Positions 1-62,687 of a DNA stretch of 64,000 nt are shown here, one piece after another. Every line of letters begins with the position of its first letter. Positions within the stretch are counted from its first letter, which is position 1. The stretch is from Candidatus Woesearchaeota archaeon (GTDB lineage: Archaea; Nanobdellota; Nanobdellia; Woesearchaeales; DSVV01): contig JACPTB010000001.1 in assembly GCA_016192995.1 (NCBI GenBank), positions 65,110-129,109 of the forward strand. Direction: 5' to 3'. The notes under the pieces were generated by a model. It made no database searches. It was not told the origin of the DNA and saw nothing but the letters and a program-made list of their open reading frames with translations. A program made the position numbers and the translations under genes.

Positions 1-186
1 AGAATCATGCTCCTTGTTTTAGACAAATTCCTTTGGTTAGGATTTGGTATTATGGCAGTAGGGTTGTTTATGATAGTTACTGGCGCTCAAGACCTTTATA
101 GAGGAATTTCATTTATGGTTGCAGGAGCAGTATTATTAGTGATATTCATGCTGTTAATTGTTAAAGAATATGAAATTGTTAAGTAA
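1..186 (+). CDS. small hydrophobic membrane protein, 3' end of an ORF that may start outside the window (internal ATG at 7)
   Basis: Open frame from position 1 to TAA at 184-186. Translation ..DKFLWLGFGIMAVGLFMIVTGAQDLYRGISFMVAGAVLLVIFMLLIV gives two hydrophobic helices. Confidence 0.3.
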   Translation, partial: RIMLLVLDKFLWLGFGIMAVGLFMIVTGAQDLYRGISFMVAGAVLLVIFMLLIVKEYEIVK

Positions 187-225: not shown

Positions 226-1032
226 ATGCTTAACCATTTTGGATGGAAAAAGACATTATTAATAACCATACTTATTGCAGCTATTCTTGTTATTGCAAGC
301 TGTTCTAAAGTAGAATGCAGAAAAGACACACAATGCGTTCAAAAAGCATGCCAAACTGCAGTATGTTCAAATAATGTTTGTAAATACACTCCTGTCCCTA
401 ACTGCTGTGGCAATTTGCAATGCGAAGCAGGAGAAACACGTTGTTCTTGTGAAGTAGATTGCAAACCAGCTTGTAAAGGAGATGTTATTCTCGAACAAAT
501 GCAATCAAAGAACAAAACATCTGAATATTTGCAATATGCTTGCAATGAAAAAACTCAAAATTGTGAAGTGCAGGTAAAAAAAGAAAAAGTAAAACCTATT
601 ACGTTGATCAATTCATGGCAGCAGCCAAATCTCCGTTTAGATATGGAATTAAAATACAAACAACCGTTTGATGTGGCAAAAGATGAAGTTCAGGTTAAAA
701 TATCACTGCAAGATGCTGATGCTAAAGTGAAATTACCTTTAGTGATATCTAAAGTGCAAATTATTTCAGGCCAAGAGTTGTTAGGAAGTAAAAATCTCAA
801 TGAAAAACTCAATAGTATTGGCGCTTCTACCATGGTTTCTATTCCTATTATAGCTCAGCTTAATACTTGGGAAGAGAAGCGTGCCATTAAAGTAAAAGTA
901 GATTATGATGCTCTTGTTTTTAAAACTGAAGAAATTATTGAACAATCTCGAAATAATGTTGAAAAACAATTCTCTGGTCAAATAATATTTGTTAAAACAG
1001 GAGAAGATGAATCTGAATCGAGCAGTAAATAA
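226..1032 (+). CDS. secreted or lipoprotein-like cysteine-rich protein, function unknown
   Basis: N-terminal signal/TM segment (LLITILIAAILVIASCSK) followed by a dense Cys module (CRKDTQCVQKACQTAVCSNNVCKYTPVPNCCGNLQCEAGETRCSCEVDCKPACKG). No recognisable enzymatic motif. Confidence 0.5.
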   Translation: MLNHFGWKKTLLITILIAAILVIASCSKVECRKDTQCVQKACQTAVCSNNVCKYTPVPNCCGNLQCEAGETRCSCEVDCKPACKGDVILEQMQSKNKTSEYLQYACNEKTQNCEVQVKKEKVKPITLINSWQQPNLRLDMELKYKQPFDVAKDEVQVKISLQDADAKVKLPLVISKVQIISGQELLGSKNLNEKLNSIGASTMVSIPIIAQLNTWEEKRAIKVKVDYDALVFKTEEIIEQSRNNVEKQFSGQIIFVKTGEDESESSSK

Positions 1033-1044
1033 TGTAAATAAACT

Positions 1045-1617
1045 ATGGTAAAAAATATCGGAATTAAGCAAAAAAGAGCTGTTGAATTGTCAGTGAATTT
1101 CATTGTTATGTTGATATTAGGTTTAGCGATCTTCTCGGTGGGGATGTACATTGCAACACAAGTTTTCTTCAAAGCTCGTGACCAGGCAAAAATATTAGAT
1201 GATGATATTAAATACGCGATAGAAAATGATTTGCGCGATAGTTCTGAAGAAGTGACGATTGGTTTGATCAGGAGATCAGTTGAACGGGCAGGCAATGATG
1301 TTTTTGGTGTTGGGATTGCAAATCGTGATGAAGCAGAGACTACTTACAAGATTGATGTTTCTTTTGCAGTTTATGAGAAAGAGGAAGGCAGCGGGAGCAA
1401 TGATCAAACATATAACAGAATTATTTTCCCTACTAAAAATTCAGCAGAATTAAATCAAATAACTATAAAACCACATGAAATTAAGATTATGAATCTGCCG
1501 TTTACCGTTCCTAAAGATACTCCTTCAGGGAGTTATGTATATAATGTAAGAGTTCTTAAAAAACTCGATACTACGCAGGTAGGAAAATTGCAGAAGATAT
1601 ATATAGATGTAAATTGA
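1045..1617 (+). CDS. putative archaeal type IV pilin-like protein (class III signal peptide)
   Basis: N-terminus MVKNIGIKQKRAVELSVNFIVMLILGLAIFSVG has a basic stretch, a KRA/V candidate prepilin cleavage site and a roughly 20-aa hydrophobic helix. The rest of the protein is hydrophilic. Confidence 0.35.
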   Translation: MVKNIGIKQKRAVELSVNFIVMLILGLAIFSVGMYIATQVFFKARDQAKILDDDIKYAIENDLRDSSEEVTIGLIRRSVERAGNDVFGVGIANRDEAETTYKIDVSFAVYEKEEGSGSNDQTYNRIIFPTKNSAELNQITIKPHEIKIMNLPFTVPKDTPSGSYVYNVRVLKKLDTTQVGKLQKIYIDVN

Positions 1618-1663
1618 TGAAATTGTAACTCTATTATTATGTTAGCAAAAAGAGGTCCATACA

Positions 1664-4081
1664 TTGTATAAAAATATGAATCTAGGGTTTATTTTTTTAG
1701 TTGTAATTAGTTTATTTGTTGTTAGTATATCAAATTTACCTCTGTCAGTGAATTCTTTTGAAGGAACAGGTTTAGTTATAGGTATGTCTTGCAAGGCAAA
1801 TGCAGATTGTAGAAATGTTAATGAAGTGTGTTATAGTAATATGTGTATTAATAGAGCGTGGATTACAAAGTTAGATAAAATGTCTGCTGAGAAAAAACAG
1901 AAAATACTGGAACAGTTTAAAGCAAAATATGAAAAATCTCAAACACAGCCTGCTTCTAATTCTCAACCAACACCAGTTCAAGAGCAATCAGTTGAGAAGG
2001 AAAAAGAATCAGGTAAAATCTCATCATTATGTGGTAATGGTATTGTAGAACAAGATGAAGTATGTGACGATGGTAATGATGATGATACTGATCAATGCAG
2101 ATTTAATTGTTCTTTATTTATCAAATCTACAGTATCACCTTATGTTATGTGTACTAAAGATGTTATTTTGAAAGTTTTTGATGCAAATAAAATTCCTTTA
2201 AATAAAGCAATTGTTTCTATTTATAATTATGAAAATACAATGTCTGCTACATCAGGTTCACAACCAATTCATTTTCCTTGGGATCAATATCCAGAAACTC
2301 TGTTAATGGTGAAAGGAAAAACTAGTGAATCTGGCGAGTTTAAGATCGAAAATGAATGGTTAACTAACACAAAAATGTATGCTTTTGTTGTTGAAAAGAA
2401 GGGATTTCTTCCATCATTTGTTGATGAAAAACAATGTTTTACCAATTATAAATATGACTTTTTTCTTCAAACTCCTCCAAGTCAGTTTTTAACTATTGAT
2501 CAGAAACAAAATGTACTTCCAGTAACTGTGATGATTACTAACACACACATTTCTAACTTAGAGGTAAGTGGTAGAGAAATAATGTTTCCTTATATTCCCT
2601 CAGTTCGAGAAGATCTTTCTAATAATTTACAAAGCGTTGATATAACTTTAAATATTTTTCAAGTGAAAACGACATTGTATCCCAATCAGAAAGAAACTAT
2701 GTTTTTACAGAAGAAAAGTAGTAATGTTAAGTTAAATCAACTTAATGTCTTTATGTATACTCTTCCCGAAGGAATCTATTATTCGTTTTTTAGTTTCAAA
2801 TTAAACTATAAGGATGGTAGTAAAAAAGAATTTAATTATTATCCAAATCATGCAACATGGGGAACTATTATTGAAAAACCATCATTTGTAGATCAGAAGC
2901 TTCTAACTCAAAGTATAGAATATATAAGCTCAGTTAGAGTTTATCCTCAACAGAATGAAGAAAAGTTTGTAAGTCTTATGGGAGAGAATACTGGGGGCAA
3001 TACAAAATTAAATATTGTTTTTTTAAATGTAGGTTTTGATAAAGAACTATTTAAATCTATAGTTAATCATTTGATCTATTCTAATAAAGGATTTACCAAC
3101 GTAGAACCATATATGTCCAATAAAGATAAGCTAAACTTTTGGTATTATCCGGATATACTCTCTTATGATGAAGCATCATGGCCAGTTAGTGAAAATACTA
3201 AAATAATCGCTCAGCTTGTGCCACTTACGAAAACCCAGAAAATATATCTCAGTCATGATATTAAAGGTAAAACTTTCTTCATTGCATTAGTTAATGATGA
3301 TCAAATTATTAGTGATACAATAGCTGGAGCTGGAAAGTGTAAATTTGAGAAAGGAACTCAAGTTGCTATAAATAAAAATATGTTACTACAATGCTTAAGT
3401 GGAAAAGATATGTCACAATGCTTTGATCAATTTGATTTGGCTAGAGTTTTTAATCATGAGATGGGTCATGAGATAGGAATCTTAGGAGAAGAGTATGTAG
3501 ACAATAATAAACTATTTGACATCAATTCTTTTGTTAGTAACCAAAAATATCTTTATAATAATTATAAGTCAAATACCTTTTTTATCGAAGGTTTGGATCC
3601 AACAGAATATTGTTTTACTTCACTATTTACAGGTGGAAAAATTCCTTATAACTATATTGGAAATGAAGTGATATGTTCATCTCAATTTAAAGTTCTTAAT
3701 TGTACTCAAAGCCAATGGGGTGATCTTATAGGTAATGGTTGTGGATCAGATGGATTAGTTGATTGTGGAAAAGATGATCCTAATTATTATTGGGAAGTCG
3801 GATGTTACTCAGGTGGTGGGATGTCTGGGGGGAAAAATACAGGGTCAAATCTTCTCAAGCCAACACGCTTTTCTATAATGCATTTAGGAGGAAAGTTTAA
3901 TTATGCACTTGAAAAGAGTCCTACTTCAAGGGTTTATGGTGTTGCAAATGAACGCTCTATCTGCCGCGCAATAAAAACATATACTGGTTCAGCAGGTGGA
4001 GTCTGCAATGAACTATGTATAGATGGCTGTAAACAAGGTGAACGTTGTATACAGGGAACATGTCAAGCTGTTAAAACTTAA
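1664..4081 (+). CDS. large secreted cysteine-rich protein with HExxH zinc-metallopeptidase-like motif
   Basis: Signal peptide is present. N- and C-terminal Cys-rich modules flank the protein. CGNGIVEQDEVCDDGNDDDTDQCRFNCS matches the Myxococcus-type cysteine-rich repeat pattern CGNG..E..E.CDDGN....DGC...C. HEMGHEIG matches HExxH. 805 aa. Confidence 0.5.
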   Translation: MYKNMNLGFIFLVVISLFVVSISNLPLSVNSFEGTGLVIGMSCKANADCRNVNEVCYSNMCINRAWITKLDKMSAEKKQKILEQFKAKYEKSQTQPASNSQPTPVQEQSVEKEKESGKISSLCGNGIVEQDEVCDDGNDDDTDQCRFNCSLFIKSTVSPYVMCTKDVILKVFDANKIPLNKAIVSIYNYENTMSATSGSQPIHFPWDQYPETLLMVKGKTSESGEFKIENEWLTNTKMYAFVVEKKGFLPSFVDEKQCFTNYKYDFFLQTPPSQFLTIDQKQNVLPVTVMITNTHISNLEVSGREIMFPYIPSVREDLSNNLQSVDITLNIFQVKTTLYPNQKETMFLQKKSSNVKLNQLNVFMYTLPEGIYYSFFSFKLNYKDGSKKEFNYYPNHATWGTIIEKPSFVDQKLLTQSIEYISSVRVYPQQNEEKFVSLMGENTGGNTKLNIVFLNVGFDKELFKSIVNHLIYSNKGFTNVEPYMSNKDKLNFWYYPDILSYDEASWPVSENTKIIAQLVPLTKTQKIYLSHDIKGKTFFIALVNDDQIISDTIAGAGKCKFEKGTQVAINKNMLLQCLSGKDMSQCFDQFDLARVFNHEMGHEIGILGEEYVDNNKLFDINSFVSNQKYLYNNYKSNTFFIEGLDPTEYCFTSLFTGGKIPYNYIGNEVICSSQFKVLNCTQSQWGDLIGNGCGSDGLVDCGKDDPNYYWEVGCYSGGGMSGGKNTGSNLLKPTRFSIMHLGGKFNYALEKSPTSRVYGVANERSICRAIKTYTGSAGGVCNELCIDGCKQGERCIQGTCQAVKT

Positions 4082-4112
4082 ATTTATTGGAGGTATAATC
4101 TAATAAAATTCA

Positions 4113-4880
4113 TTAGCAATTCCTTATCATACTAATAAACGAATCAACTTCCAATGATGCATTCCCTGGAAGAACACCGTCAACATCTTGAAGAATAAGA
4201 ATTTCTCGAATATTGTCTGGTTTGACGCTGCCGCCGTAAATAATATACATTTGTTCAACAACACGTTGATGATATAACTGAAGCAAGCTGGCTCGTATAA
4301 ATGCATGCATTTCTTCTATTTCAAGCAATCCTGCTGGTTGTTTTTTTTGATCGCCTTTGCTAATCGCCCACAAAGGTTCATACGCAATCACGATATTCTT
4401 TGCTTGTTTCTGATCAACATTTTTCAAACATTGTTTTAGTTGTCGAAGCACAAAATCTTTGTACTCATCTTCTTTTCGTTGTTTTACGTCTTCTCCAATG
4501 CATAAAACAGGAGTAAATCCCTGTTGTAATGCGGTAAGAAGTTTTTTATTGACCATTTCATTAGTTTCTCCAAGTTCACGTCTTTCAGAATGACCAATAA
4601 GAACATATTTTACCTTAAATTCTTTTAACATTAAGGGGGAGACTTCACCAGTAAACGCGCCTTTAGCTTCATAAAAAATATCTTGAGCGCCAAGTTCAAG
4701 AATATCACGCTTTAATACGTTGTTTACTTCGCTTAATGCAGTAAATGAAGGGCATATAACAAGATTAAAATATTCAATATGCTTGATCTTCTTCTGAAAT
4801 TCTTTGACAAATGCAACTGATTCAGCAGCAGTTTTATTCATTTTCCAATTACCAATAATCAAGGGATCTTTGGTTGACAT
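4113..4880 (-). CDS. tpiA: triosephosphate isomerase
   Basis: IIGNWKMN, AYEPLWAI and IYGGSV motifs. Start moved to MSTKDPL (4880) because the ORF-track extension to 4931 runs toward the MITE at 4943-5093. Confidence 0.8.
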   Translation of the reverse strand: MSTKDPLIIGNWKMNKTAAESVAFVKEFQKKIKHIEYFNLVICPSFTALSEVNNVLKRDILELGAQDIFYEAKGAFTGEVSPLMLKEFKVKYVLIGHSERRELGETNEMVNKKLLTALQQGFTPVLCIGEDVKQRKEDEYKDFVLRQLKQCLKNVDQKQAKNIVIAYEPLWAISKGDQKKQPAGLLEIEEMHAFIRASLLQLYHQRVVEQMYIIYGGSVKPDNIREILILQDVDGVLPGNASLEVDSFISMIRNC

Positions 4881-4942
4881 ACCTATTTCAAAGCATATGT
4901 TCTTTTTAAGCTTTTTGGATGAAAGGCACAATCCAATTTGTA

Positions 4943-21699: not shown

Positions 21700-22536
21700 A
21701 TGAAACATGCTATCAAATTGTTCAATAATAAGAAGATTCGTGTTGAATGGGATTCCGAAAAAGAGAAGTGGTACTTCTCAATAGTAGATGTTATACATGT
21801 GCTTACTGAAAGTCCAAATCCACGGAAATATTGGAGTGTGCTAAAAACAAGGTTAAAAGTCGAGGGAAGTGAGTTGGCTACAAATTGTAGTCAACTGAAA
21901 ATGCTTTCATCTGATGGTAAATATTACAATACAGATGTTGCTGACACGGAACAATTGCTTCGCTTAATTCAGTCAATTCCATCTAAAAAGGCAGAGCCAT
22001 TCAAGATGTGGCTTGCAAGAGTTGGTCGTGAAAGAATTGATGAAACTGAAGATCCTGAACTTGCAATTGATAGAGCAATGTATTTATATTTACATAAAGG
22101 ATATTCTCTTGACTGGATAAATCAACGATTAAAAACAATTGAAGTGAGAAAACAGCTAACTGATGAATGGAATAGGGTTGGAATTACAAAACAAGAAGAT
22201 TATGCTATTTTGACAAACGAAATTACAAAAGCATGGTCTGAAAAGACAGTTAAGGAATATAAACAGTTAAAAGGATTGAAAAGAGAGAATTTAAGAGATA
22301 ATATGACAAATATTGAATTAATCCTAAACATGCTTGCAGAAGCAACAACAAAGGAGATCTCAGAAAAAGAAAATCCTGACTCTTTTGAACAAAGCAGAGA
22401 AATTGCAAAAGAAGGTGGAAAAACTGCAAAAGTTGCAAAAGATAGAATAGAAAAAAGATTAGGTCAAAAAGTGGTTAATTCTAAGAATGCTAAAAAAATT
22501 CATTACAGCGATAAAAAGTGGATTAAGGATGTTTGA
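21700..22536 (+). CDS. Bro-N domain / DNA-damage-inducible protein D (DinD)-like protein
   Basis: N-terminus IRVEWDSEKEKWYFSIVDVIHVL fits the Bro-N pattern. Central and C-terminal region parallels E. coli DinD (..YKQLKGLKRENLRDNMTNIELILNMLAEATTKE..), recalled from memory. Confidence 0.55.
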   Translation: MKHAIKLFNNKKIRVEWDSEKEKWYFSIVDVIHVLTESPNPRKYWSVLKTRLKVEGSELATNCSQLKMLSSDGKYYNTDVADTEQLLRLIQSIPSKKAEPFKMWLARVGRERIDETEDPELAIDRAMYLYLHKGYSLDWINQRLKTIEVRKQLTDEWNRVGITKQEDYAILTNEITKAWSEKTVKEYKQLKGLKRENLRDNMTNIELILNMLAEATTKEISEKENPDSFEQSREIAKEGGKTAKVAKDRIEKRLGQKVVNSKNAKKIHYSDKKWIKDV

Positions 22537-26869: not shown

Positions 26870-28123
26870 TTACCCCTTTAGTAACCACTTCCAGACGGGA
26901 ATTGCTATTATTGTTTTATCTCCAATTATAAATTTATCTTCTTGATTATAAGTTAAAATTAATCCTTCTTTCAGCTTAAATTTCTTCATGGCGCTAACTA
27001 AGCCAGTTATTTCCCTCTCCCTACTATTTTCATTAAGTTCATAGCAAACCTGCATGGCTTTGACAATTTTTAGACCTTCTCTAATTAAAAAATCACATCC
27101 ATTTTCTTCTTGAAAGTAGAATATCTCTTTATTTTTCCTTCTTAAATTGATAAAAACAAGGTTTTCAAGCAGCCGACCCCGGTCATCAAAGAAAGAAGCA
27201 GAATTTTTGGCTGCAAAACCATTATCTATTGCATAAATTTTCTTAGGATTAACCAGCATTTTTTTCAGAGAATAATCGAATCGCTGAATAGTGAACAGCA
27301 GGTAGGTGTTTTCAAAATAAGAGATAAAAGCTATGACTGTATTAATCGAACCTAATTTAAAATTCTTTTTAAGAGAGTTATACGTAAAGGGCTTCCCAAT
27401 ATTTGTCAAGAGATAAGTAGCCAGGTCTTTCAATATTTTTTGGTTTCTTAGTTGATACCTAGTTATAATATCTCTAGCAAGTATATCCTTCAGTAATTCT
27501 TGAAGAACATCCGGTCTTTTTAGTTTTAAATATTCTGCAAAACCACCCTCAGAGAAATATTCTTCAAATGAAACTAAGGAGGGTTTCTCTTTTTTAAGCC
27601 TTAGAAATTCTCTAAATGAGAACGGAAATAATTCATGATTTAAGTGTCTCCCTGTTAGTTTTGTTCCGAGTTCCTGACTTAAAAGAGACGCATTAGAACC
27701 CGTAATTATCACGTGTTTCTTCAGGTCAACCAGTCTTCTTACAAAAATCTCCCATTTAGCAATATTCTGAATTTCGTCAAAAAAATAATAATTCTGTTCT
27801 TTATACTCTTCGTGAAAGACTTGGTCTAATTTTTCAAAATCACCTATATCAAACTCTCCGGCTCGTGAGTCCTCAAAATTAAAATAGTAGAATCCTTTCA
27901 GATTTTTCATCAATTGCAGAAGCAAGGTGCTTTTTCCACATCTTCGTATTCCTGATAAAATCAAAGCAAAAGGCACATTTAAATCGATAGTTGATATATC
28001 TTCCCTCTCTATGCCTAGATCAAATAAGGCCATTTCTTCTCTTTGCAATCTTACCAGTCTTCTAAGTGTTTCTTTATCTATCATGTAACTTTCTAATACA
28101 TTTAGATTTATAAATGTTTGCAT
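26870..28123 (-). CDS. AAA ATPase of the COG1373/DUF4143 family
   Basis: Walker A ILSGIRRCGKSTLL and Walker B FFDEIQ. C-terminal DUF4143-like region. Paralog at 50229-51491. Confidence 0.7.
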   Translation of the reverse strand: MQTFINLNVLESYMIDKETLRRLVRLQREEMALFDLGIEREDISTIDLNVPFALILSGIRRCGKSTLLLQLMKNLKGFYYFNFEDSRAGEFDIGDFEKLDQVFHEEYKEQNYYFFDEIQNIAKWEIFVRRLVDLKKHVIITGSNASLLSQELGTKLTGRHLNHELFPFSFREFLRLKKEKPSLVSFEEYFSEGGFAEYLKLKRPDVLQELLKDILARDIITRYQLRNQKILKDLATYLLTNIGKPFTYNSLKKNFKLGSINTVIAFISYFENTYLLFTIQRFDYSLKKMLVNPKKIYAIDNGFAAKNSASFFDDRGRLLENLVFINLRRKNKEIFYFQEENGCDFLIREGLKIVKAMQVCYELNENSREREITGLVSAMKKFKLKEGLILTYNQEDKFIIGDKTIIAIPVWKWLLKG

Positions 28124-36224: not shown

Positions 36225-38531
36225 ATGGGTTTAGTAAGTATTGTAAAGAGATTAGCACAGATTATGGGTGTGGTTGGTGGGTTAGCTGCAGCAACACCTG
36301 CCTTTGCTGATGAAACTCCTGAGAGATGTGAATCTGTTCGTACTAATACACCACCATTAATAGAGAGATATAAACAATTATGGTCAGATTTAGATACAGA
36401 TTTAGGACCTCATCTTGCTTCTGCAAGCGAACTAACACAAACTCAATCACAGATGTATGCTTCTCAAACAGATGTTTTGAGAAGAATTGCGCAAAGTAAT
36501 ATTAGAAAAATAGATAGTTTACTACAAGCATTACCCTTAGCAGAAGGACAAGGACATATTGATAGTGGATACACCTGTGTAGATTTAGATGCAAAGTTAT
36601 ACGATATAGAAAAAAGTTTCGAAAGAGCTCAAAAAAAAGCAGATGAGATAAGAGACACGGCCAAACGCCATAAAGAAATTCTAGCTGCCCTTAACCATGC
36701 GGTTTGGACTAGTGATTATAGTAGGTTTCATCAATCTAAACGAGAACTTGCATTCGATCTCTCTAGTGAAACGGATTACACAGAGATAGGTGATATTATT
36801 GCTCAAATTGGTGATTACGCACAAGCTTTGCCTGATTTGACAGGTAACTTAGCTATTGCATCAGACAAAGGTACACCTAAATCACCCCCGTCAAGATCAG
36901 GAACAAGCGGAACAACATATAGTCAAGCACCTTCAAGAACATCAGTTTCATCTTCAACAACATCATTAACACTAGTGCTTGATGCTAATGCAATTCCAAC
37001 AGGAATTGGACAAGATATTATCAATAATAGTTATGCATATGCTGCTGCTCATCCAAAACAAGGAAAATCTCAACCAAGAACAGCTTATCGATCACCTATG
37101 ACAAGATTTTGGGCTTTGTTCAAAGGAGCTAATGCAGAGAAAGCAACAAGACATACTTCAGCTAATGTATTAGACGCAATAATTGAGCAAGGAAGAGATA
37201 CACATTTTTCTTTTTCTGGAATAGGAAGATGTGATTATTTAACAGCAGTAGCTGAAAAAACTAAAGATATATACAATAATGGACGATATCATGGACAATT
37301 TAGAATTAGCGATGTTGAAGTAAAAGGTTGTGATAATACTGAGAAGGTAAAATCAGTTACAACTCCACCATCAAATATGCAACCTCAACAACCTGCTCCT
37401 CCAAATGACAATAAAGTTAGACCAGGAGAAGTACATCCTGATTTTCCTACATTCCCAAAAGAGACACTCGATGCACTTCCTGGAACATCAACTGACAATA
37501 CTTTAGATACTCTTATGAAAACCTATACTGCTCATAACCATGCATTTAGTAATGGTCTTTTGGATGCTCATAAATATGTTGCACAAGTTAAGGCAGCAAT
37601 GAGTAAAGGAAATAATGATCTTTATGTTACTGAAAACGGCAGACTTGCAAGAGCAATCTTAGCAAATGAAGGCAGCTTAGTGCGCAAATATAATGATAGA
37701 ATTGCTGATCTGATGGAAGTTGTTGCTGATACAAGCGATCAACGTGCTTTAGATGAAATTCAACGTGCATTAGTTGATGCAACAGCGCGAAGTTATGTGC
37801 GACGCACACCTAAAGTTTTAGCACAATTAGCAGGAGCAGCATTGGCAGTTGAACAAAAGCAAAAAGCAGTTGCTTCTACTCTTGAAAATAGTGTTGGAGC
37901 AGGCTCAGGTCCTGAACCATTAACACATGATCGTGTTCATTATGCAACTGCACGTTACAAAGCAGATGAAGCTATTGATACTTTACATAGTGCATTGATG
38001 ACTGAGAATTATGATTTAGCTCAAAGATTAGCAGGACGAATGTCACCTCGACAAGTAGTAAAAGCAGAATTAGAAATGAATAGAAGTTATGCTTTAACCG
38101 ATCAACAAAGAGCACAATATGGACGCTTCTTTGAAGGAGCAGAACATGCTGCAAACGAACGTGAAGCTCATGTGCGCGCTCAAGCAAGAGAACAAGAATA
38201 TGCTGAAGATTTAGCGCAACTTGGAAATGCTCCCGGATTAAGAACCCATCGTGTGTATAATCAAGTTCGCGCAGGATTAATTGATGGTAATACTGATGCA
38301 TTGAAAATATTGCAAGAAAATGGTATGTTAACATTACAACATATTACAGCTATTGAAGCTGGTATTGATGGAACTCAATTAACAGCAGCAAAAAGAGCAA
38401 GAATTGCTATGGATCTTGAATTTGTTGAACGGTATTTATTATCACCAGCAACTACACCTCGAGATCCAGCAGCAGCACAAGTAATTGCATTTCCACAAAG
38501 AACTGCTATAATTTATGACAAAGCTGCTTAA
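36225..38531 (+). CDS. large secreted protein of unknown function (Sec signal AFA/DE)
   Basis: N-terminal signal MGLVSIVKRLAQIMGVVGGLAAATPAFADE. 768 aa, Ala/Gln/Thr/Asp-rich, compositionally unlike neighbours. Confidence 0.45.
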   Translation: MGLVSIVKRLAQIMGVVGGLAAATPAFADETPERCESVRTNTPPLIERYKQLWSDLDTDLGPHLASASELTQTQSQMYASQTDVLRRIAQSNIRKIDSLLQALPLAEGQGHIDSGYTCVDLDAKLYDIEKSFERAQKKADEIRDTAKRHKEILAALNHAVWTSDYSRFHQSKRELAFDLSSETDYTEIGDIIAQIGDYAQALPDLTGNLAIASDKGTPKSPPSRSGTSGTTYSQAPSRTSVSSSTTSLTLVLDANAIPTGIGQDIINNSYAYAAAHPKQGKSQPRTAYRSPMTRFWALFKGANAEKATRHTSANVLDAIIEQGRDTHFSFSGIGRCDYLTAVAEKTKDIYNNGRYHGQFRISDVEVKGCDNTEKVKSVTTPPSNMQPQQPAPPNDNKVRPGEVHPDFPTFPKETLDALPGTSTDNTLDTLMKTYTAHNHAFSNGLLDAHKYVAQVKAAMSKGNNDLYVTENGRLARAILANEGSLVRKYNDRIADLMEVVADTSDQRALDEIQRALVDATARSYVRRTPKVLAQLAGAALAVEQKQKAVASTLENSVGAGSGPEPLTHDRVHYATARYKADEAIDTLHSALMTENYDLAQRLAGRMSPRQVVKAELEMNRSYALTDQQRAQYGRFFEGAEHAANEREAHVRAQAREQEYAEDLAQLGNAPGLRTHRVYNQVRAGLIDGNTDALKILQENGMLTLQHITAIEAGIDGTQLTAAKRARIAMDLEFVERYLLSPATTPRDPAAAQVIAFPQRTAIIYDKAA

Positions 38532-38794: not shown

Positions 38795-40438
38795 TTACCA
38801 ATATCTTGCTCTCTCTGCTGTTTTTTCTAACGCAGGTAATAATCCTAATAATCCTATATATTGATCTTGTTGTCTTTTAAATTCATTAGGATCTAATGCT
38901 TTAATTTCTTCCATTGCATATTTTATATTTGATAGTATCTCTGGGATTCTGCTTGCCATAAATAATCTTTTCTTTGTATCAAACCAGGCACTGTAAAAAC
39001 ATAAACTTCTAAAAATAACTGAATGTAAATAAGCCATTTTCAAACTCTCAGCCAATGATTTTGATCCAATTAACTCTTCAGGAGTTGATCCCAAGTCCTT
39101 ATATGCTTTAACATATGCTTCTAATCCATTAAAATCATGTTCAAATGTTTTCCCGCAATAATCCCCAAACCGATAAAGATTTGCCACTTCATTTATTAGA
39201 GGAACGCTTGACATCCTTTCTAATTCAAAGTCAACTCTTCCTATTTCAGAAACACCTTTCCTTTTATCAATAACAACTATATATTGTTTAGGATGGGAAT
39301 CTAAGTTAACTACTTCAGGGATATTTTTAAATACTCGAAATATGGTTAAACTAGTGAGAAAATCACAATCACGTGGTTCTAAAAAGCCATATTTACAATA
39401 ACGGTTACTATCTTCAAATCTTTTTTTTAATTCTTTGCTCGGATCAAATTTTCCTAGTACAATAAACTCTTCACCAAGAATGTAATGAAGTTTTCCAGTT
39501 AAAGTTGCAACTTCAGGTAAAAAAGATAATGCAATAGATTTATATTTTCTTGATCTCAATGCCTCATCTAATGTAATTCCTCGTATACGCTCATCGTAAC
39601 GAGCAAATCTTTCGTTGTTGATATACACATAACCAATAGTGTGCGGTAATTTTAATTTAATTCCAGCTTCATCTAATTTTTTTCGAACAATTGTTCGTAC
39701 TCTTGCTTCATTTCTTAATTCTATAAAATTTGATTTTATAACACGAACATTAAGTTCTGTAATATTTCTAGCGTATTTAACTACTTTCACATCAACATCT
39801 CGTCCACCATCACCTAAAGTTTCCTTTACGTCTCCATTTTTCTCGAGCCACACAGCAAATGTTTGATCTAATTGGTTTATTTCTTCAACTCTTCCCAATC
39901 TTGTCAACACTCTTTTAAGACCATCATAATGAAGAGGATTTAAGGTGTAACAAACAAGATATTTTTTATCTTCAGAAACTACACCATATTGAAAAGTAGG
40001 TGAATAATCAAAAGTATTTGGGGAGCTTTGTAGACTATTGTTTAGAGCATCTTCTAAAATTGAATTATGAGAACGATACCATCTAGATCTCATTTTGTCA
40101 AAAGCAAACATTGGTATCCCAAAAAATAATCCCCCTATTATGATTGCGTCTAAAAAAGTTCCCTTGTTTAATGGTGGGTATATTAATGCAGCATATAAGA
40201 AAGCATTTACTTTGCCTGAGGTTTGAAGATCTTCAAATAATTTTTTTAAAACTGATCTTCTTATTTTATCTGAAAATATTATGTGTGATATAGAATATTG
40301 AATAGACGTTTTACCTAAAGAGGAAACTTCTTGATAATCTTCTAACTCAAAAATAGTTATACCATCATCTGTATCGATAGTTAAAAGAAAAGGAGATTCA
40401 CGAACAATATCATCTATACATCTCTGATCCAAAAGCAT
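38795..40438 (-). CDS. hypothetical protein (547 aa) immediately downstream of rps7
   Basis: Long ORF with no Walker A motif and no recognisable signature. Occupies the usual EF-2 position. Confidence 0.45.
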   Translation of the reverse strand: MLLDQRCIDDIVRESPFLLTIDTDDGITIFELEDYQEVSSLGKTSIQYSISHIIFSDKIRRSVLKKLFEDLQTSGKVNAFLYAALIYPPLNKGTFLDAIIIGGLFFGIPMFAFDKMRSRWYRSHNSILEDALNNSLQSSPNTFDYSPTFQYGVVSEDKKYLVCYTLNPLHYDGLKRVLTRLGRVEEINQLDQTFAVWLEKNGDVKETLGDGGRDVDVKVVKYARNITELNVRVIKSNFIELRNEARVRTIVRKKLDEAGIKLKLPHTIGYVYINNERFARYDERIRGITLDEALRSRKYKSIALSFLPEVATLTGKLHYILGEEFIVLGKFDPSKELKKRFEDSNRYCKYGFLEPRDCDFLTSLTIFRVFKNIPEVVNLDSHPKQYIVVIDKRKGVSEIGRVDFELERMSSVPLINEVANLYRFGDYCGKTFEHDFNGLEAYVKAYKDLGSTPEELIGSKSLAESLKMAYLHSVIFRSLCFYSAWFDTKKRLFMASRIPEILSNIKYAMEEIKALDPNEFKRQQDQYIGLLGLLPALEKTAERARYW

Positions 40439-49664: not shown

Positions 49665-49761
49665 CGGGCCAGACGAGATTTGAACTCGCGACCACCCGAT
49701 TTCTTAGGAAGCTGAGCATCCTTAAAAGTCGGGTGCTCTATCCAGGCTGAGCCACTGGCCC
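49665..49761 (-). tRNA. tRNA-Lys (anticodon TTT) with about 22-nt canonical-position intron
   Basis: RC GGGCCAGTGGCTCAGCCTGGATAGAGCACCCGACTTTTA[intron]ATCGGGTGGTCGCGAGTTCAAATCTCGTCTGGCCCG. Acceptor, D, anticodon and T stems all pair. Confidence 0.7.
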
Positions 49762-50090: not shown

Positions 50091-50218
50091 CCTCCTATAG
50101 CTCAACGGCAGAGCGTTCGGCTGTAGATAACTCACTGCAATGACATTGGATTATCCATAAGAATGAGTTGCAGCCAGCTGAACCCGAAAGGTTCCCGGTT
50201 CAAATCCGGGTGGGGGGA
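50091..50218 (+). tRNA. tRNA-Tyr (anticodon GTA) with about 56-nt intron
   Basis: CCTCCTATAGCTCAACGGCAGAGCGTTCGGCTGTAG[intron]..CCGAAAGGTTCCCGGTTCAAATCCGGGTGGGGGGA. C1-G72 pair, anticodon loop CTGTAGA. Confidence 0.65.
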
Positions 50219-50228
50219 TTTCTTTATC

Positions 50229-51491
50229 TTACTCTACCATCCATTTATAAATAGGCAACACTTGTATCTTTTTGCTTTTCATCCGTATATCTTCTGTTTG
50301 TTCATGGGTCAGCATTATTCCTGTTTTCAACTTGAATTTGTCCATTGCTTCAATTAAACCTGCTATTTCTCTTTCCTTATTATCTTTATTCAGGACGTAG
50401 CATACCTGTATGGCTTGTGTTATTTTTGTCCCTTTTTTTGTTATAAAATCACATTCGTTTTCATTAGTATAATAAAATACCTCATTGTTTCTTCTTTTTA
50501 ATTCAATAAATACCATATTTTCCAGTATTTTTCCCTTGTTTTCTGAAAAGTTTGTCCCACATATTTGATTGAATGCAGAATCCACGAGATATATTTTTCT
50601 TGGGGAGTTAAGCTGTTGTTTCAGTGAATAGGAGAATTTCAGCAGTTCAAAAAACAAATAAGAGTTACTTAAGTAAGAAATATATTCTTTGACGGTTATC
50701 GCATTTCCTAAACCAAGAGTTTTCTTTAATGAGTTGTAGGTGAATTGTGAGGAAATGTTTGTACCAAGTAGGTTTATCAGTTCTTTAATTATCTTCTGCT
50801 TTCTTATAGAATATCTTGTTATAACATCCTTGTATAATATATTCTCATAAACTGTTTTAATATATTCTTTATCCTTGTTTTTTAGGTATTCCGGCAAACC
50901 CCCTAATGATACATACTCTTCAAAGAGCTTTATCAATTCAACTTTCTTCTCAACGATGTAAAAATCATTTTTCTCTAAGGTTATATTCCTAAATTTAAGA
51001 AATTCTTTGAAAGAAAATGGATAGACTTCAAACGGTTTGTATCTCCCGGTCAATCTCGTACCAAATTCCTTGCTAAGTAAAGAAGCATTAGAACCTGTAA
51101 TTATGACTTTCTTTCCCTCATCCTGCAATCTTCTAACAAACGTCTCAAACTTATCTATATTCTGTATTTCATCAAAAAAATAAATATTTATCTTGCCATA
51201 TTCTTCAATAAGAACCTCATTAAGCACTTCAAAATCCTGAGCCATAAAATCCAAGAATCTTTCATCCTCAAAGTTAACATAACACCAATCAGACACATTT
51301 TGCATAACTTCCTTAAGCAGCGTAGATTTGCCGCATCTTCTAACACCGGTAAGAATAATCACCCTATCATCCTTAATCCACTTTAAAATTTCGTCCAGCA
51401 GATCTCTCACAACAAAACGTTGTTTAGTTAAAATCTCCTGTTTTTGCCTCATTACTACTTTCCTTAAGATATCCTTGTCAAACATACTCAT
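50229..51491 (-). CDS. AAA ATPase, COG1373/DUF4143 family (paralog of 26870-28123)
   Basis: ILTGVRRCGKSTLL Walker A, FFDEIQ Walker B. Collinear with the other copy. Confidence 0.7.
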   Translation of the reverse strand: MSMFDKDILRKVVMRQKQEILTKQRFVVRDLLDEILKWIKDDRVIILTGVRRCGKSTLLKEVMQNVSDWCYVNFEDERFLDFMAQDFEVLNEVLIEEYGKINIYFFDEIQNIDKFETFVRRLQDEGKKVIITGSNASLLSKEFGTRLTGRYKPFEVYPFSFKEFLKFRNITLEKNDFYIVEKKVELIKLFEEYVSLGGLPEYLKNKDKEYIKTVYENILYKDVITRYSIRKQKIIKELINLLGTNISSQFTYNSLKKTLGLGNAITVKEYISYLSNSYLFFELLKFSYSLKQQLNSPRKIYLVDSAFNQICGTNFSENKGKILENMVFIELKRRNNEVFYYTNENECDFITKKGTKITQAIQVCYVLNKDNKEREIAGLIEAMDKFKLKTGIMLTHEQTEDIRMKSKKIQVLPIYKWMVE

Positions 51492-51594: not shown

Positions 51595-53055
51595 CTATTC
51601 ATTTGCTGCAAGCGCCGTGTTAGAATTGACTTTAACTATATGGCCAGAAGCTGTTTTAAATTTAGCGCTTGCATAAGGTAGTCTCATATTGCCAATGATT
51701 TTTAAACGTGATTTTATTTTATACGTTAAAATACGCTCTTCATAGCCTTCAAGAGCAGCTATGCTCCATCTGATAACAGTACCTTTCTTCTCATGTTTTA
51801 AGATTTTATCCGGCGCTAGAGTGCCATGGCTGAATTCTTTTTCAACTTGCGCTATATGAGTTACTCGATCCATAATAAATACTTCTTCTACAGGCTTATT
51901 TGTTCTATTTTTTACATGAATCAACACTTTAATGTGAGACATATTGCTATTTGCATCGTCTTTGTTTAAAACAACAGCTTCTTTAGATATGATTACAGGA
52001 CTCCTAAACACAAAATAAGCTATAACCCCAAGAATCAGAAGGATAATTGCAGTAAATAGATATCTGAAATTAGTGCTTATAACAATTATTTGCTTTTCTT
52101 GAGGGGGAATATCAAGAGTCCACGTAAAATAACGCTCACCTTCTTCGGTAATCACTTCTCCTTTAGGCATCGCTGATGTAAACAGCTGGTTAAACAAGGT
52201 AGTTTTGAACGTGATCTTTTCGTTATTGACTACATTACCATCATTAGTAAATGTTTTAGTAATTACTTCTTTAAGAAACTGCTTATTAACATCCTCTTCT
52301 GTTTTGAGATCAGAATAAGCCTTAACTTTAATCACTTTTTTAGTCGAAAATGATCCTTCTTCAGCAGCTACCGTAACCATTAACAGGTCATTTTGAGGAG
52401 GTGTTAATGGATCATAAATAACGGTAAAACTCTCAGTTTTTCGCTCGAGAGGCGCCAGCGAAATCATTTTATCTCCATTAAACAGTTTGCTTTCAACCAT
52501 TACTTTTAATTCAGGAATATTAAGCTTGTTTTTGTTGAGAAGGTTTATTTTTAATTCAAATGGCTGGCGAGGATCTACTTGCTCAGGAAAATCAACATCA
52601 AGATTTATTGAAGGGATATATCCTCCAACAGTATTAGATGGATCTTTAACAATTAATATACTGCTTACTTGCTGGCTATTGCCGCCTTTTTTTGAAGTTA
52701 TATCTAAATTGAACTCATGAGGGCCATAATTAACAATTTCTGAAGGAATAACATATATTTTAAAGCTGACTGTTTGTCCTGGTTGAAGATTAATCCCAGA
52801 AAGATATGAAAGCTTTTCAGTTTCAATACTCCATTTATTGCCGTTGTAAAAATTTAATATGAAACTATCAGGTTCTTCATTAAGGTTGGTAATGCTGAGC
52901 TGATAAACAGCTTTTTCTCCTGGCAAAGCTGCGTAAGTAATTTTAGTAAACTTAACCTGAAAATCAGAAAGAGCTGTTACAAAACTAAAGGTTAACAAGA
53001 GCATTGTTAAAAAAATAAGTGATACACGACCTGCTCGACCCCTTTTTTGCACCAA
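51595..53055 (-). CDS. cell-surface protein with signal peptide and C-proximal TM anchor, unknown function
   Basis: N-terminal hydrophobic signal LIFLTMLLLTFSFVTALS. Beta-rich extracellular part. TM helix AIILLILGVIAYFVF. Confidence 0.4.
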   Translation of the reverse strand: MVQKRGRAGRVSLIFLTMLLLTFSFVTALSDFQVKFTKITYAALPGEKAVYQLSITNLNEEPDSFILNFYNGNKWSIETEKLSYLSGINLQPGQTVSFKIYVIPSEIVNYGPHEFNLDITSKKGGNSQQVSSILIVKDPSNTVGGYIPSINLDVDFPEQVDPRQPFELKINLLNKNKLNIPELKVMVESKLFNGDKMISLAPLERKTESFTVIYDPLTPPQNDLLMVTVAAEEGSFSTKKVIKVKAYSDLKTEEDVNKQFLKEVITKTFTNDGNVVNNEKITFKTTLFNQLFTSAMPKGEVITEEGERYFTWTLDIPPQEKQIIVISTNFRYLFTAIILLILGVIAYFVFRSPVIISKEAVVLNKDDANSNMSHIKVLIHVKNRTNKPVEEVFIMDRVTHIAQVEKEFSHGTLAPDKILKHEKKGTVIRWSIAALEGYEERILTYKIKSRLKIIGNMRLPYASAKFKTASGHIVKVNSNTALAANE

Positions 53056-59059: not shown

Positions 59060-60478
59060 TTATTGGACTGTTACTGCAACATTTGTTTCTGCTTCTCCAG
59101 TAACTTTAGCACTTATATCAACTACTGCTTCTTCCACTTCTTCTTCAGATTCAGTGATTTCATACTCTTCTTTGTCCTGCAATGATCCTCGGCATTCGCC
59201 TAACAATCCAGGTTGATTGCTGTTAACAAACTTAATTCCTTGCTGCATAAACTTTGGTACATCGTGCATTGCTTCAAATGCCTTGCTCAGCTCTTTTTTA
59301 GCAGCATCTATACTTCTTTGAGCTTGTTCACCGTCTTCTGAAGATCTTGCCTTGTCAAAAAATTTCTGGGCTTGTTCATAATGCTCTTTAGCAGAAGCTT
59401 GTTTCTCAACTATTTGCTTAATAACTTGCATTAAATTTGCAGTGTCAACACTTGTTTCAAGCTTTTCTTCAGCGCATTCTAATGCTGCAACTGCTTTCTC
59501 TGAACTTTGAAATAATCCCTGAGCTGCTCCCTGTAATGAACGTTGAGCATGCACTTTTATTCTATGCTTAAAAAGCTTGTAAATATGTTTTAGTTCCTGC
59601 GCTTGCGCTCTTATTTCTTCTTTAGTTGTGGCAAGTCTTGCCTGTTCAATGATTTTATCCAATCTTTCGACTGCTGCTTCAAGCTCATCAACTGCTTTGT
59701 CATCATAATTATTTTCTTCTACTTTTTCAAGGATTTTTTCTAAATGTGCTTGCAGCCGTTCAGATGATTGTATGACAAATTCTTTTGCCTGTTCAAGAAT
59801 TTCTTCATCACTTGCGCCTTTTTCTTTAAGTTCAAGGAATTTCTTGCGCGCTTCTTCAGCATGCTGTTCTGCCCGCTCAAATTTCTTTTCAGCTTGTAGG
59901 TATCGCAGCCTTACTTTTTTCAAATCTTGAATTGCAAGCCTTTCCTTTACTTGGGCTTTTTTAAGCTTCATCTTATCAAGCCTTTCTCTGCATGCATCTT
60001 CGTTGTCTTTGCATGCTTGCATAAACACTTGTAAATCTGCTCTATCCATATGGGCTAGAACTTCAGCTTGATGTTCATTCATCTTTCCAAGAAAATCTGC
60101 TTTATGCTGTTGAACTGCATATTTCAGCTTTCTCTTTTGTTCATCTGATAGTTCTTCAAACCCTTTTTTCATAAACCAATCAGCTTTAGCTTCTTTAAAA
60201 TTATCTTTTAACTTTTCTTCATATTCTTTTCTCCTTTCTTTCATTTCTTTGATCTTTTCCCTTTGTTTTTCACCATAGGTATCTTTACCATTATTATCAT
60301 ATCCGATTTCAGCTTCAGCTGAAGCTTCTGCTTCAACATTTCCTGATACTTCTCCAGAAGAAGTGTCACTTCCTGTATTTTCATCTCCCGTACCTGACTC
60401 TGCAGCTACAAGAGGAACTACTCCTATCATATATAACAATACAACCAATACCACATAGATTCTTTTCATTTCGTACAT
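59060..60478 (-). CDS. secreted coiled-coil protein, unknown function
   Basis: Signal peptide, acidic Ser/Gly/Asp/Glu-rich stretch, then long Lys/Glu heptad coiled coil. Confidence 0.4.
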   Translation of the reverse strand: MYEMKRIYVVLVVLLYMIGVVPLVAAESGTGDENTGSDTSSGEVSGNVEAEASAEAEIGYDNNGKDTYGEKQREKIKEMKERRKEYEEKLKDNFKEAKADWFMKKGFEELSDEQKRKLKYAVQQHKADFLGKMNEHQAEVLAHMDRADLQVFMQACKDNEDACRERLDKMKLKKAQVKERLAIQDLKKVRLRYLQAEKKFERAEQHAEEARKKFLELKEKGASDEEILEQAKEFVIQSSERLQAHLEKILEKVEENNYDDKAVDELEAAVERLDKIIEQARLATTKEEIRAQAQELKHIYKLFKHRIKVHAQRSLQGAAQGLFQSSEKAVAALECAEEKLETSVDTANLMQVIKQIVEKQASAKEHYEQAQKFFDKARSSEDGEQAQRSIDAAKKELSKAFEAMHDVPKFMQQGIKFVNSNQPGLLGECRGSLQDKEEYEITESEEEVEEAVVDISAKVTGEAETNVAVTVQ

Positions 60479-62000: not shown

Positions 62001-62687
62001 TCATGCCTTTATCATATGAAATATAATCTCAGCATAAGGTTGTCTATCTCTTTCTGTTCTATTCAAAACAGGTCTTTTAAACTGCTCAACTATCTTTAAA
62101 CCACTTTTCTCTGCGATTCTTGGATAGAGATTATATTTATCATTAGCTACAATAAAGAAATCTCCATTATCTTTAATAAATTGACTTATGTTTATGAAAA
62201 CCTTACTTATGCCTTCAACATACTCATCTTTCGCTTTTTGTCCTTGACCTTTAAATAAAGGACTTATTTCTTTATTGTCTTTTCTTGAAATGCCAAATAA
62301 CTCGTAAGCGTAAGCATGTTGCTCATGGTAATCTATTTGACCAACATAAGGTGGAGAAGTAAAAATTCCATCTATTTTTTTATTTACTAAAAGCTTGTAA
62401 AAGTCAGGATTTTGCTTTTTGATTTCTCCAAAAATATCAGCTTCTCTTGAATCTCCATGAATAACACCTGTATATACTTTCTTCTTGATATTTGAAAAAT
62501 CCTTTAATCGTGCAATTGTATCAAACGTATATCTTCTCAAATGCCCGTTTATGGTATTTAGTGGAGTGCATATTTTTTTATGCTTTCTGCAGTAATATGG
62601 TCCTGTTTGTGGCTCTTTTAATGTTGCTAAATCTGAATGGGTTGTTGCCCTGCATGACCTCGCAGTTCTGCTTAATACTATTCTCAT
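62001..62687 (-). CDS. DNA methyltransferase, catalytic-motif IV half (SPPY), probably N4-C or N6-A
   Basis: GDSRE ... IDGIFTSPPY motif IV. In frame with, and separated by a single TAA from, the upstream ORF at 62763-63599. Confidence 0.55.
   Translation of the reverse strand: MRIVLSRTARSCRATTHSDLATLKEPQTGPYYCRKHKKICTPLNTINGHLRRYTFDTIARLKDFSNIKKKVYTGVIHGDSREADIFGEIKKQNPDFYKLLVNKKIDGIFTSPPYVGQIDYHEQHAYAYELFGISRKDNKEISPLFKGQGQKAKDEYVEGISKVFINISQFIKDNGDFFIVANDKYNLYPRIAEKSGLKIVEQFKRPVLNRTERDRQPYAEIIFHMIKA

Follow-up and report, generated by a model that had tools for sequence, protein, structure and literature searches.

We analysed a 64,000-nt stretch of DNA (hereafter the window) from a Candidatus Woesearchaeota archaeon (GenBank assembly GCA_016192995.1, contig JACPTB010000001.1, positions 65,110 to 129,109 of the forward strand), and in particular three plus-strand open reading frames (ORFs) near its start: ORF1 (226-1032, 268 aa), ORF2 (1045-1617, 190 aa) and ORF3 (1664-4081, 805 aa). 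DPANN archaea live in dependence on other cells, and the proteins they secrete are a likely interface with hosts and nutrients. We consider it quite probable that the locus is a composite, in which the product of ORF3 is a zinc metalloendopeptidase, exported and multi-domain, from a divergent M64 clade, ORF3 being an accessory gene, while ORF1 and ORF2 close a conserved woesearchaeal surface cassette as its last two genes.

A first-pass annotation, made from the sequence, had described the three ORFs as an operon of three secreted cysteine-rich proteins. Their co-directional arrangement and the gaps of 12 nt (ORF1/ORF2) and 46 nt (ORF2/ORF3) are exact in the ORF listing, and all three products have hydrophobic, export-type N-termini; the description as three cysteine-rich proteins was wrong, because ORF2 has no Cys at all. 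Among the 48 window ORFs of at least 150 aa (median Cys content 0.97%), ORF1 ranks first (15 Cys, 5.6%) and ORF3 second (25 Cys, 3.1%), and a paralog search found no paralogs of any of the three inside the window. ORF1 and ORF2 are identical to NCBI HYY69_00315 and HYY69_00320, carried on a 323,765-bp contig, and the locus is surrounded by housekeeping genes of archaeal type (ribosomal protein S3Ae, a Bud32-type kinase, PTH2, RNA polymerase subunits, L1/L10). The database version of ORF3 (P0001, 801 aa) begins at the ATG at 1676, four codons after the TTG at 1664; we favour the TTG because a Shine-Dalgarno-like GAGGT (1652-1656, +), read directly from the sequence, lies 7 nt ahead of it.

A word-index homolog search with ORF3 returned only ORF3 itself, and its family surfaced only in an exhaustive HMMER scan of 1.84 billion representative proteins, which gave 444 proteins at E ≤ 1e-3. 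Twenty-three of the matches, at E ≤ 1e-30, were long and extended to the C-terminus, about half of them covering residues 120-803. In a family alignment of 26 homologs (22-38% identity) H598, E599, H602 and Y611 were invariant, within the consensus HExGHxLGxLxEEY, as were C650, C680, W685, G690, G692, C693, D700, C701, E711, C714 and C767; at such low identities the invariance of H598, E599 and H602 shows that the HExxH motif is not there by chance. Searched against the PDB with hmmsearch, the 26-sequence profile matched structures of M64 (IgA-peptidase) enzymes, namely 3p1v (8e-6), the Thomasclavelia ramosa IgA protease 9qdh/9ekk (1.6e-5) and 4df9 (3.7e-5), aligning NIVFLNVGF with idvaILAEGYt, EPFKSNKNKFNFW with EPFRSMKSKFNIV, and HElGHelgalgEeY with HEFGHSFGGLADEY. 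The blocks that ORF3 shares with these enzymes can be written NIVF..G, EPF.S...FN, HE.GH..G.L.[DE]EY and a late ...P....IM.

The predicted structure points the same way. An AlphaFold model of ORF3 built on a 74-sequence alignment had a predicted local distance difference test score (pLDDT) of 85 and a predicted template modelling score (pTM) of 0.81; the alignment was needed, as a single-sequence run reached a pLDDT of only 34. In a Foldseek search of the PDB with this model, the 13 best matches were all chains of the M64 enzymes BF3526 of Bacteroides fragilis (4DF9, 9QDI) and BACOVA_00663 of Bacteroides ovatus (3P1V), at E 1.6e-9 to 3.5e-8 and probability 1.00, with BF3526 the best (1.6e-9); the T. 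ramosa IgA peptidase (ThomasA/IgAse) was also matched (8e-5). The model has the M64 fold, an N-terminal beta-sandwich followed by a catalytic domain, as in 4DF9 and 3P1V. The first-pass proposal of a secreted, Cys-rich, metalloprotease-like third protein is supported.

Several observations weigh against the M64 assignment. ORF3 itself gave no match at E ≤ 1 to Pfam Peptidase_M64 (PF09471, gathering score 26 bits; paired with PF16217 in the reference enzymes), and its motif has Glu (E609) at position 12, the third-ligand position, where the canonical M64 residue is Asp, and Ile instead of Gly at position 9, the Gly at position 8 being kept. The Asp-to-Glu change is already found in some M64 enzymes, those of clusters CL-III and CL-VI (PMC12402451). 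The Pfam model was weakly matched by 12 of the 26 family members (best E 0.0011), and bridging archaeal relatives (Methanosarcinales, Pacearchaeota and Iainarchaeum), which share the C-terminal half with ORF3, carry the canonical HEFGHxFGxLxDEY; the bridging sequences L025, L028 and L023 clear the gathering score, at 38.5-45.1 bits. ORF3 is thus tied to Pfam M64 only through intermediate sequences, since it goes unmatched itself and its distant archaeal relatives pass. Placed by profile, fold and these intermediates, ORF3 is a new, divergent member of the M64 superfamily, in a divergent clade that the Pfam model misses. Kinship with the ADAM/reprolysin peptidases was considered and rejected: phmmer with ORF3 against the PDB yielded nothing but a non-significant match of the ADAM10 disintegrin to its Cys repeat (E 0.49), and Pfam Reprolysin_3 gave E 0.19.

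The predicted zinc-binding and catalytic motif, HEMGHEIGILGEEY, lies at 3455-3496 (+) and includes HEMGHEIG at residues 598-605. The M64 family motif is HEXXHXXXGXXD, with the two His and the Asp as zinc ligands and the Glu as general base, roles taken in BF3526 by H311, H315, D322 and E312 (PMC12402451). ORF3 (HEMGHEIGILGE) has the H, E and H, all invariant in its family, and the EY that follows the motif is conserved, as in 3P1V. By alignment with these enzymes the zinc ligands of ORF3 would be H598, H602 and E609 and its general base E599, the near-invariant M739 (in "PT..SIM") may be a Met-turn, and homology to the solved M64 enzymes predicts a zinc-dependent peptidase activity. In ThomasA, E551 and three Cys bind a second, structural zinc (PMC12402451); E610, C671 and C680 of ORF3 align with three of these four residues, but the CxxC partner is missing, and the invariant Cys of ORF3 may form either disulfides or a metal site.

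The domain order of ORF3 can be followed along the plus strand. A hydrophobic stretch, LGFIFLVVISLFVVSI, forms a putative signal or anchor helix at about residues 1-30 (1664-1753; helix at residues 2-22 in the model). It is followed, at residues 39-118 (1778-2017; by Cys count and model), by a knot of four Cys (C43, C49, C56 and C61; residues 39-63), helices (64-93) and a low-complexity Q/P/S/E linker that the model leaves disordered (94-133, pLDDT < 50). Next is a single Myxococcus-type Cys-rich acidic repeat (TIGR02232/DUF4215; residues 119-150, 2018-2113), with CGNGIVEQDEVCDDGNDDDTDQCRFNCS at residues 123-150. This repeat scored 23.8 bits against NCBIfam TIGR02232, passing the cut-off of 20.8, and 24.6 bits against Pfam DUF4215, under the cut-off of 27; model confidence over it is low (pLDDT 43-56), and its CGxGxxE...CD pattern is retained in about nine of the closest ORF3 homologs. 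Many of the proteins hit in the exhaustive search with ORF3 have several repeats, up to 27 matched stretches in one protein, whereas ORF3 has one copy. The repeat is a genuine TIGR02232-type element. The outcome that the first-pass annotation had named as its refutation did not arise, since both metallopeptidase and Cys-repeat families are matched and the HExxH residues do not vary among the homologs.

Two beta-sandwiches separate the repeat from the catalytic domain. The one at about residues 160-270 (2141-2473, +; strands 167-267 in the model) is CarboxypepD_reg-like: the family profile matched the S-layer protein SlaB (8qox_B) in the PDB at E 6e-7 over this region, and Pfam CarboxypepD_reg was matched by 5 of the 26 family members. 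The other, at about residues 278-430 (2495-2953, +; strands 287-427), is by its position the likely equivalent of the M64 N-terminal domain in the model; with M64 enzymes 400 residues long, the Foldseek alignments extend over about 535 columns. The M64-like catalytic domain occupies about residues 440-780 (2981-4003, +; from the profile-to-PDB blocks and Foldseek) and includes, in its C-terminal half, a Cys-rich clade signature, WGDLIGNGCGSDGLVDC (3716-3766, +), in which W685, G690, G692, C693, D700 and C701 are the invariant residues. The protein ends in a five-Cys knot, CNELCIDGCKQGERCIQGTC (residues 781-800, 4004-4063, +; from the alignment, with model strands at 793-802). The arrangement that the first-pass annotation had read from the letters, with N- and C-terminal Cys modules (C43-C61 and C781-C800) flanking the repeat and the HEMGHEIG motif, is thus correct.

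Compared with the M64 reference enzymes, ORF3 likewise places a beta-sandwich ahead of an alpha/beta zinc-peptidase domain, but it differs in its clade-specific WxDLIGNGCGxDGxxDC and C-terminal Cys knot and in its extra N-terminal modules (Cys knot, stalk, DUF4215 repeat and CarboxypepD_reg-like domain). Its host also sets it apart, being a DPANN archaeon where the 15 main M64 clusters are bacterial or eukaryotic (PMC12402451). There is a further parallel with the M64-type peptidases of Ca. Nanohaloarchaeota, which are likewise predicted to be extracellular and occur in reduced-genome DPANN archaea (PMC9563170); by their description those were called by standard MEROPS/Pfam methods, whereas ORF3 is more divergent, is missed by Pfam and has another architecture. 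The N-terminal leader of ORF3 is not confined to it: residues 8-146 (window 1685-2101) are shared at 38-50% identity with four proteins (P0038, P0044, P0062 and P0067), among whose cargo are one reprolysin/matrixin-like peptidase with CarboxypepD_reg and one dockerin. Because the same leader recurs on proteins with other cargo domains, it looks reusable, and this suggests that signal, four-Cys knot and helical stalk together form an export/anchoring or stalk module.

Gene context marks ORF3 as accessory and lineage-specific, with no conserved association with its neighbours. In a related genome (L001, GCA_053531935.1; ORF2 67% identical), a convergent triosephosphate isomerase gene comes 36 nt after the ORF1-ORF2 pair. 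By blastn, positions 3-1044 of that sequence correspond to window 598-1613 and 1084-1891 to window 4112-4919, the ORF3 segment being a clean indel. In a closer relative, for which there is only a 2.6-kb fragment (L006; ORF2 87% identical), homology ends at window 1640 and an unrelated, convergent gene reaches with its 3' end into the final 83 nt of the fragment, so that ORF3 is not beside ORF2 over the extent of that fragment. Together these comparisons delimit a lineage-specific segment of about 2.5 kb (1641-4111) holding ORF3. Conversely, three inspected ORF3 homologs (in a Nanoarchaeia metagenome-assembled genome [MAG], a Joint Genome Institute metagenome contig and a 1.23-Mb bacterial MAG) have unrelated neighbours and no cassette. 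The operon of three is therefore not a conserved unit.

The clade itself is scattered patchily across the domains. When the clade-signature pattern was searched across 185,579 species, each represented by a single genome, only 25 stretches matched, 19 of which were confirmed ORF3 relatives. By their deposited labels, the archaeal carriers are Woesearchaeota, Pacearchaeota, Nanoarchaeia, Iainarchaeum, Micrarchaeota and Methanosarcinales, and the bacterial carriers are Saccharibacteria, two MAGs labelled Gammaproteobacteria, Bradymonadales and Myxococcales. A scan of viral contigs found no ORF3 relatives in them. The closest full-length bacterial homolog (972 aa, 35% identity) is encoded on a chromosome of 1,232,850 bp (L011, OZ246405.1) labelled "uncultured Gammaproteobacteria", with NusA, a short YidC and an O-antigen-ligase-like protein among its neighbours; given the 1.23-Mb chromosome, the record may be mislabelled or may come from a reduced symbiont.

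The gene set to which ORF1 and ORF2 belong begins upstream of the window, whose edge cuts it; two more of its co-directional members lie on that side. Identical Logan contigs that reach upstream (L007) carry, ahead of ORF1, a 184-aa gene A and a 93-aa gene B, the latter (3739-4020 of L007) encoding a small protein with two transmembrane (TM) segments whose C-terminal 59 codons fall at window 7-186 (+). The cassette order is thus pilin-like A, 2-TM B, variable exported C (ORF1) and pilin-like D (ORF2), and it is this unit of four, not the trio, that is conserved: a distant relative (L003) keeps the order, with genes of 191, 80, 172 and 188 aa. Identity between the two genomes is 31% for A, 44% for B and 32-35% for D, and the slot C proteins are not detectably homologous, that of the relative being a membrane-anchored protein. 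After the cassette in that relative there is a 206-aa membrane Peptidase_M50 (site-2-protease-like, HECAH; L003 5107-5727, +) in place of ORF3, so a different metalloprotease there trails the pilin-like D.

ORF1, in slot C, has the signal peptide and dense Cys module that had been ascribed to it: a hydrophobic signal leads to a lipobox-like IASC, followed by a module of 15 Cys (residues 26-113) that contains CGNLQCEAGETRCSCEVDC and by a C-terminal domain of about 150 aa. The I-A-S-C26 sequence fits the lipobox pattern and is kept in an 87%-identical homolog. Upstream of the ORF1 ATG, by 22 nt, is a TATA-box-like TTTATATA (197-204, +), which may be the promoter for a leaderless ORF1 transcript; because its count in the window is indistinguishable from chance (9 observed, 9.2 expected), it is only a positional hint.

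ORF2 (gene D) has KQKRA/VELSVNFIVMLILGLAIF in its N-terminal part, resembling an archaeal class III (prepilin) signal as the first-pass annotation had noticed, and continues into a domain of about 140 aa. Seven homologs conserve this N-terminus, having G or A at -1, and so does gene A, a paralog of ORF2 whose own N-terminus is KRA-SLNLSVDAIVIFVLAF. The motif, [KR][KR][AG][VI]ELSVNFIVMLILGL, persists down to 24-35% identity and hence is not there by chance. What A and D share (basic residues followed by A or G, and an xELSxNxI(V/I) that leads into a continuous hydrophobic helix) is more conserved than any other part of these proteins, and no other ORF in the window has an ELSxN-type N-terminus. 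We call ORF2 and gene A pilin-like on the strength of this motif, as a resemblance only. Neither ORF1, ORF2, gene A nor gene B belongs to a Pfam, NCBIfam or PDB family.

How ORF3 came to this locus, and what it does there, can be read in other ways. It might have been acquired recently from bacteria of the Myxococcota or candidate phyla radiation (CPR) type, bringing a bacterial repeat into the archaeon, as could be argued from the match of its repeat to a model built on Myxococcus proteins, from the occurrence of the family not only in DPANN archaea but also in Myxococcales, Bradymonadales, a Saccharibacteria genome and the 1.23-Mb bacterial MAG, from the presence/absence polymorphism among close relatives, and from a slightly low GC content (30.8%, z = -1.4). 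That deviation is, however, within 1.5 standard deviations, and the codon usage of ORF3 ranks 52nd of 55 in the window for divergence, among the least divergent; with native codon usage and GC only slightly low, composition gives no sign of recent import, and we rejected it as evidence of transfer. Inspected by eye, the junctions of the 2.5-kb indel have no direct repeats, mobile-element genes or recognisable remnants, the indel is explained equally well by loss in the relatives, and the viral contigs yielded no homolog. In a simple neighbour-joining tree, built without support values, archaeal and bacterial sequences interleave throughout and ORF3 groups with the Nanoarchaeia protein and a small-genome bacterial protein, its nearest labelled relative thus being a DPANN archaeon. 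Inter-domain exchange within the family is likely, in one direction or the other, yet a recent bacterial origin for this particular gene seems to us unlikely, though not negligible. We give still less credence to the view that the three genes form a single attachment operon, in which ORF2 would build a fibre, ORF1 and ORF3 would be Cys-rich adhesins or tip proteins, and the HExxH domain would bind or locally cut the host surface; this we regard as improbable. It draws on the co-directional genes and short gaps, the Shine-Dalgarno site before ORF3, the export-type N-termini of all three proteins, the beta-sandwich and Cys-repeat modules of ORF3, which are typical of surface proteins, and the use of pili in host contact that is thought to occur in DPANN archaea (PMC9563170). 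Against it stand the ORF3-less loci of both relatives, the lack of pilin-like neighbours at the three inspected ORF3 homologs, a conserved unit that is A-B-C-D and not ORF1-ORF2-ORF3, and the catalytic residues, whose invariance indicates that the domain is under selection as an enzyme. What counts here against an independent ORF3 is that the short gaps, the Shine-Dalgarno site and the absence of any obvious T-run in the ORF2-ORF3 gap still allow co-transcription of ORF2 and ORF3, and in this strain there may be a functional tie between ORF3 and the cassette.

The nature of the cassette is itself contestable, in that ORF2 and its paralog A may instead be type II (signal-anchor) membrane proteins of an ordinary kind, each bearing a small extracellular domain, and the cassette may be unrelated to type IV filaments. 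The difficulties for a pilin-like surface cassette are the following. ORF2 matched no pilin or archaellin model of Pfam or NCBIfam at E ≤ 1, its only family matches being weak ones to beta-sandwich families (E about 0.03), and its family profile found nothing but noise in the PDB at E ≤ 10. Genes for a prepilin peptidase, a type IV filament (TFF) ATPase or a platform protein were absent from the 30 largest other window ORFs and from the 4 kb upstream. The charged Glu at +2 of ORF2, finally, departs from the FlaFind pattern for archaeal class III sites, where it would be unusual. On the other side, the N-terminus is conserved far above the rest of the protein and has the basic residues, small A/G at the presumed -1 and uninterrupted hydrophobic helix that class III signals expect; one cassette holds two paralogs with that same N-terminus, each with a small C-terminal domain, multiple paralogs being a trait of archaeal type IV pilins, and these are generally too divergent for family models. 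We lean against the signal-anchor view while holding it a real possibility. The cassette in any case departs from known archaeal pilin systems by including a 2-TM protein that is uncharacterised and an exported protein that varies. At the other extreme, and as a long shot, the ORF3 clade could represent a toolkit enzyme, exchanged horizontally across domains among organisms that live on other cells, for cutting host or prey surface proteins, its carriers including DPANN archaea, a Saccharibacteria genome, other small-genome bacteria and predatory Myxococcota/Bradymonadales; and, separately, A-B-C-D could represent a minimal pseudopilin system of a new type, displaying swappable slot-C cargo with no dedicated ATPase locus.

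If ORF3 is, as we prefer, an exported M64-like peptidase, it would leave the cell by a Sec-type signal or anchor, to be retained by its N-terminal helix or else released. From the N-terminus outward, the signal/anchor, Cys knot, helical and low-complexity stalk, TIGR02232/DUF4215 repeat and two beta-sandwiches would carry the catalytic domain, closed off by the C-terminal Cys knot. Catalysis would proceed as in the solved M64 enzymes, with H598, H602 and E609 holding the zinc and E599 activating a water molecule, and the protein would act outside the cell as a zinc endopeptidase or oligopeptidase. The M64 enzymes characterised so far cut next to proline, ThomasA cleaving IgA at P221-V222, and BF3526 trims the N-termini of pre-digested proteins (PMC12402451); IgA is irrelevant as a substrate for ORF3. 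Signal-peptide-bearing M64 peptidases in DPANN MAGs have been proposed to supply peptides and amino acids (PMC9563170). By analogy, the most likely role of ORF3 in this reduced-genome archaeon would be the cleavage of extracellular proteins or peptides, environmental or on a host surface, for nutrient supply or surface remodelling; peptide processing that feeds an organism with limited biosynthesis is plausible, and the cutting of host surface proteins is an alternative. The products of genes A and D, for their part, are probably inserted through the class III-like N-terminal helix, whether or not they would be processed as pilins are, and the proteins of the cassette probably build a surface structure or are displayed on one, to which ORF3 is tied by adjacency in one lineage alone.

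Other features of the window and its flank deserve mention. About 1 kb upstream of the window start, beside the cassette, there is a 643-aa long RelA/SpoT homolog (HD_4, RelA_SpoT, TGS and ACT domains; L007 1122-3053, -); long enzymes of this kind are uncommon in archaea, and the gene may be bacterial-derived. A 97-nt tRNA at 49665-49761 (-), called "tRNA-Stop (anticodon tta)" by ARAGORN, reads CTTTTAA in its anticodon loop, after which comes an insert of about 21 nt, and looks like a tRNA-Lys(UUU) with an intron at the canonical position, not a suppressor tRNA; a 128-nt tRNA at 50091-50218 (+; Rfam 51.5 bits), missed by ARAGORN, presumably carries a long intron. Four large ORFs belong to no Pfam family: 36225-38531 (+, 768 aa), 51595-53055 (-, 486 aa), 59060-60478 (-, 472 aa) and 38795-40438 (-, 547 aa). 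Those of 768, 486 and 472 aa have signal-peptide-like N-termini, and the 768-aa protein, rich in Ala, is encoded where GC content within the first 40 kb is highest (36.9%). There are two paralogous AAA_14 + DUF4143 ATPases (26870-28123 and 50229-51491, both -; 417 and 420 aa). Adjacent ORFs at 62001-62687 and 62763-63599 (-) match different parts of the N6_N4 DNA methylase model, as a split or two-part gene would; they and a Bro-N domain protein at 21700-22536 (+) are possible traces of mobile or viral DNA.

With ORF3, an unannotated "hypothetical" protein of 805 residues is now assigned to the M64 zinc-peptidase superfamily, and this family, studied mainly in gut bacteria, is extended to a divergent clade in DPANN archaea and several bacterial lineages. 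The protein is a concrete enzyme for testing, with predicted metal ligands, a predicted catalytic Glu and a candidate Pro-directed specificity, and its accessory status guards against over-reading an apparent operon. The two pilin-like paralogs, the 2-TM protein and the variable exported protein make up an uncharacterised cassette that offers a modest lead for archaeal surface biology.

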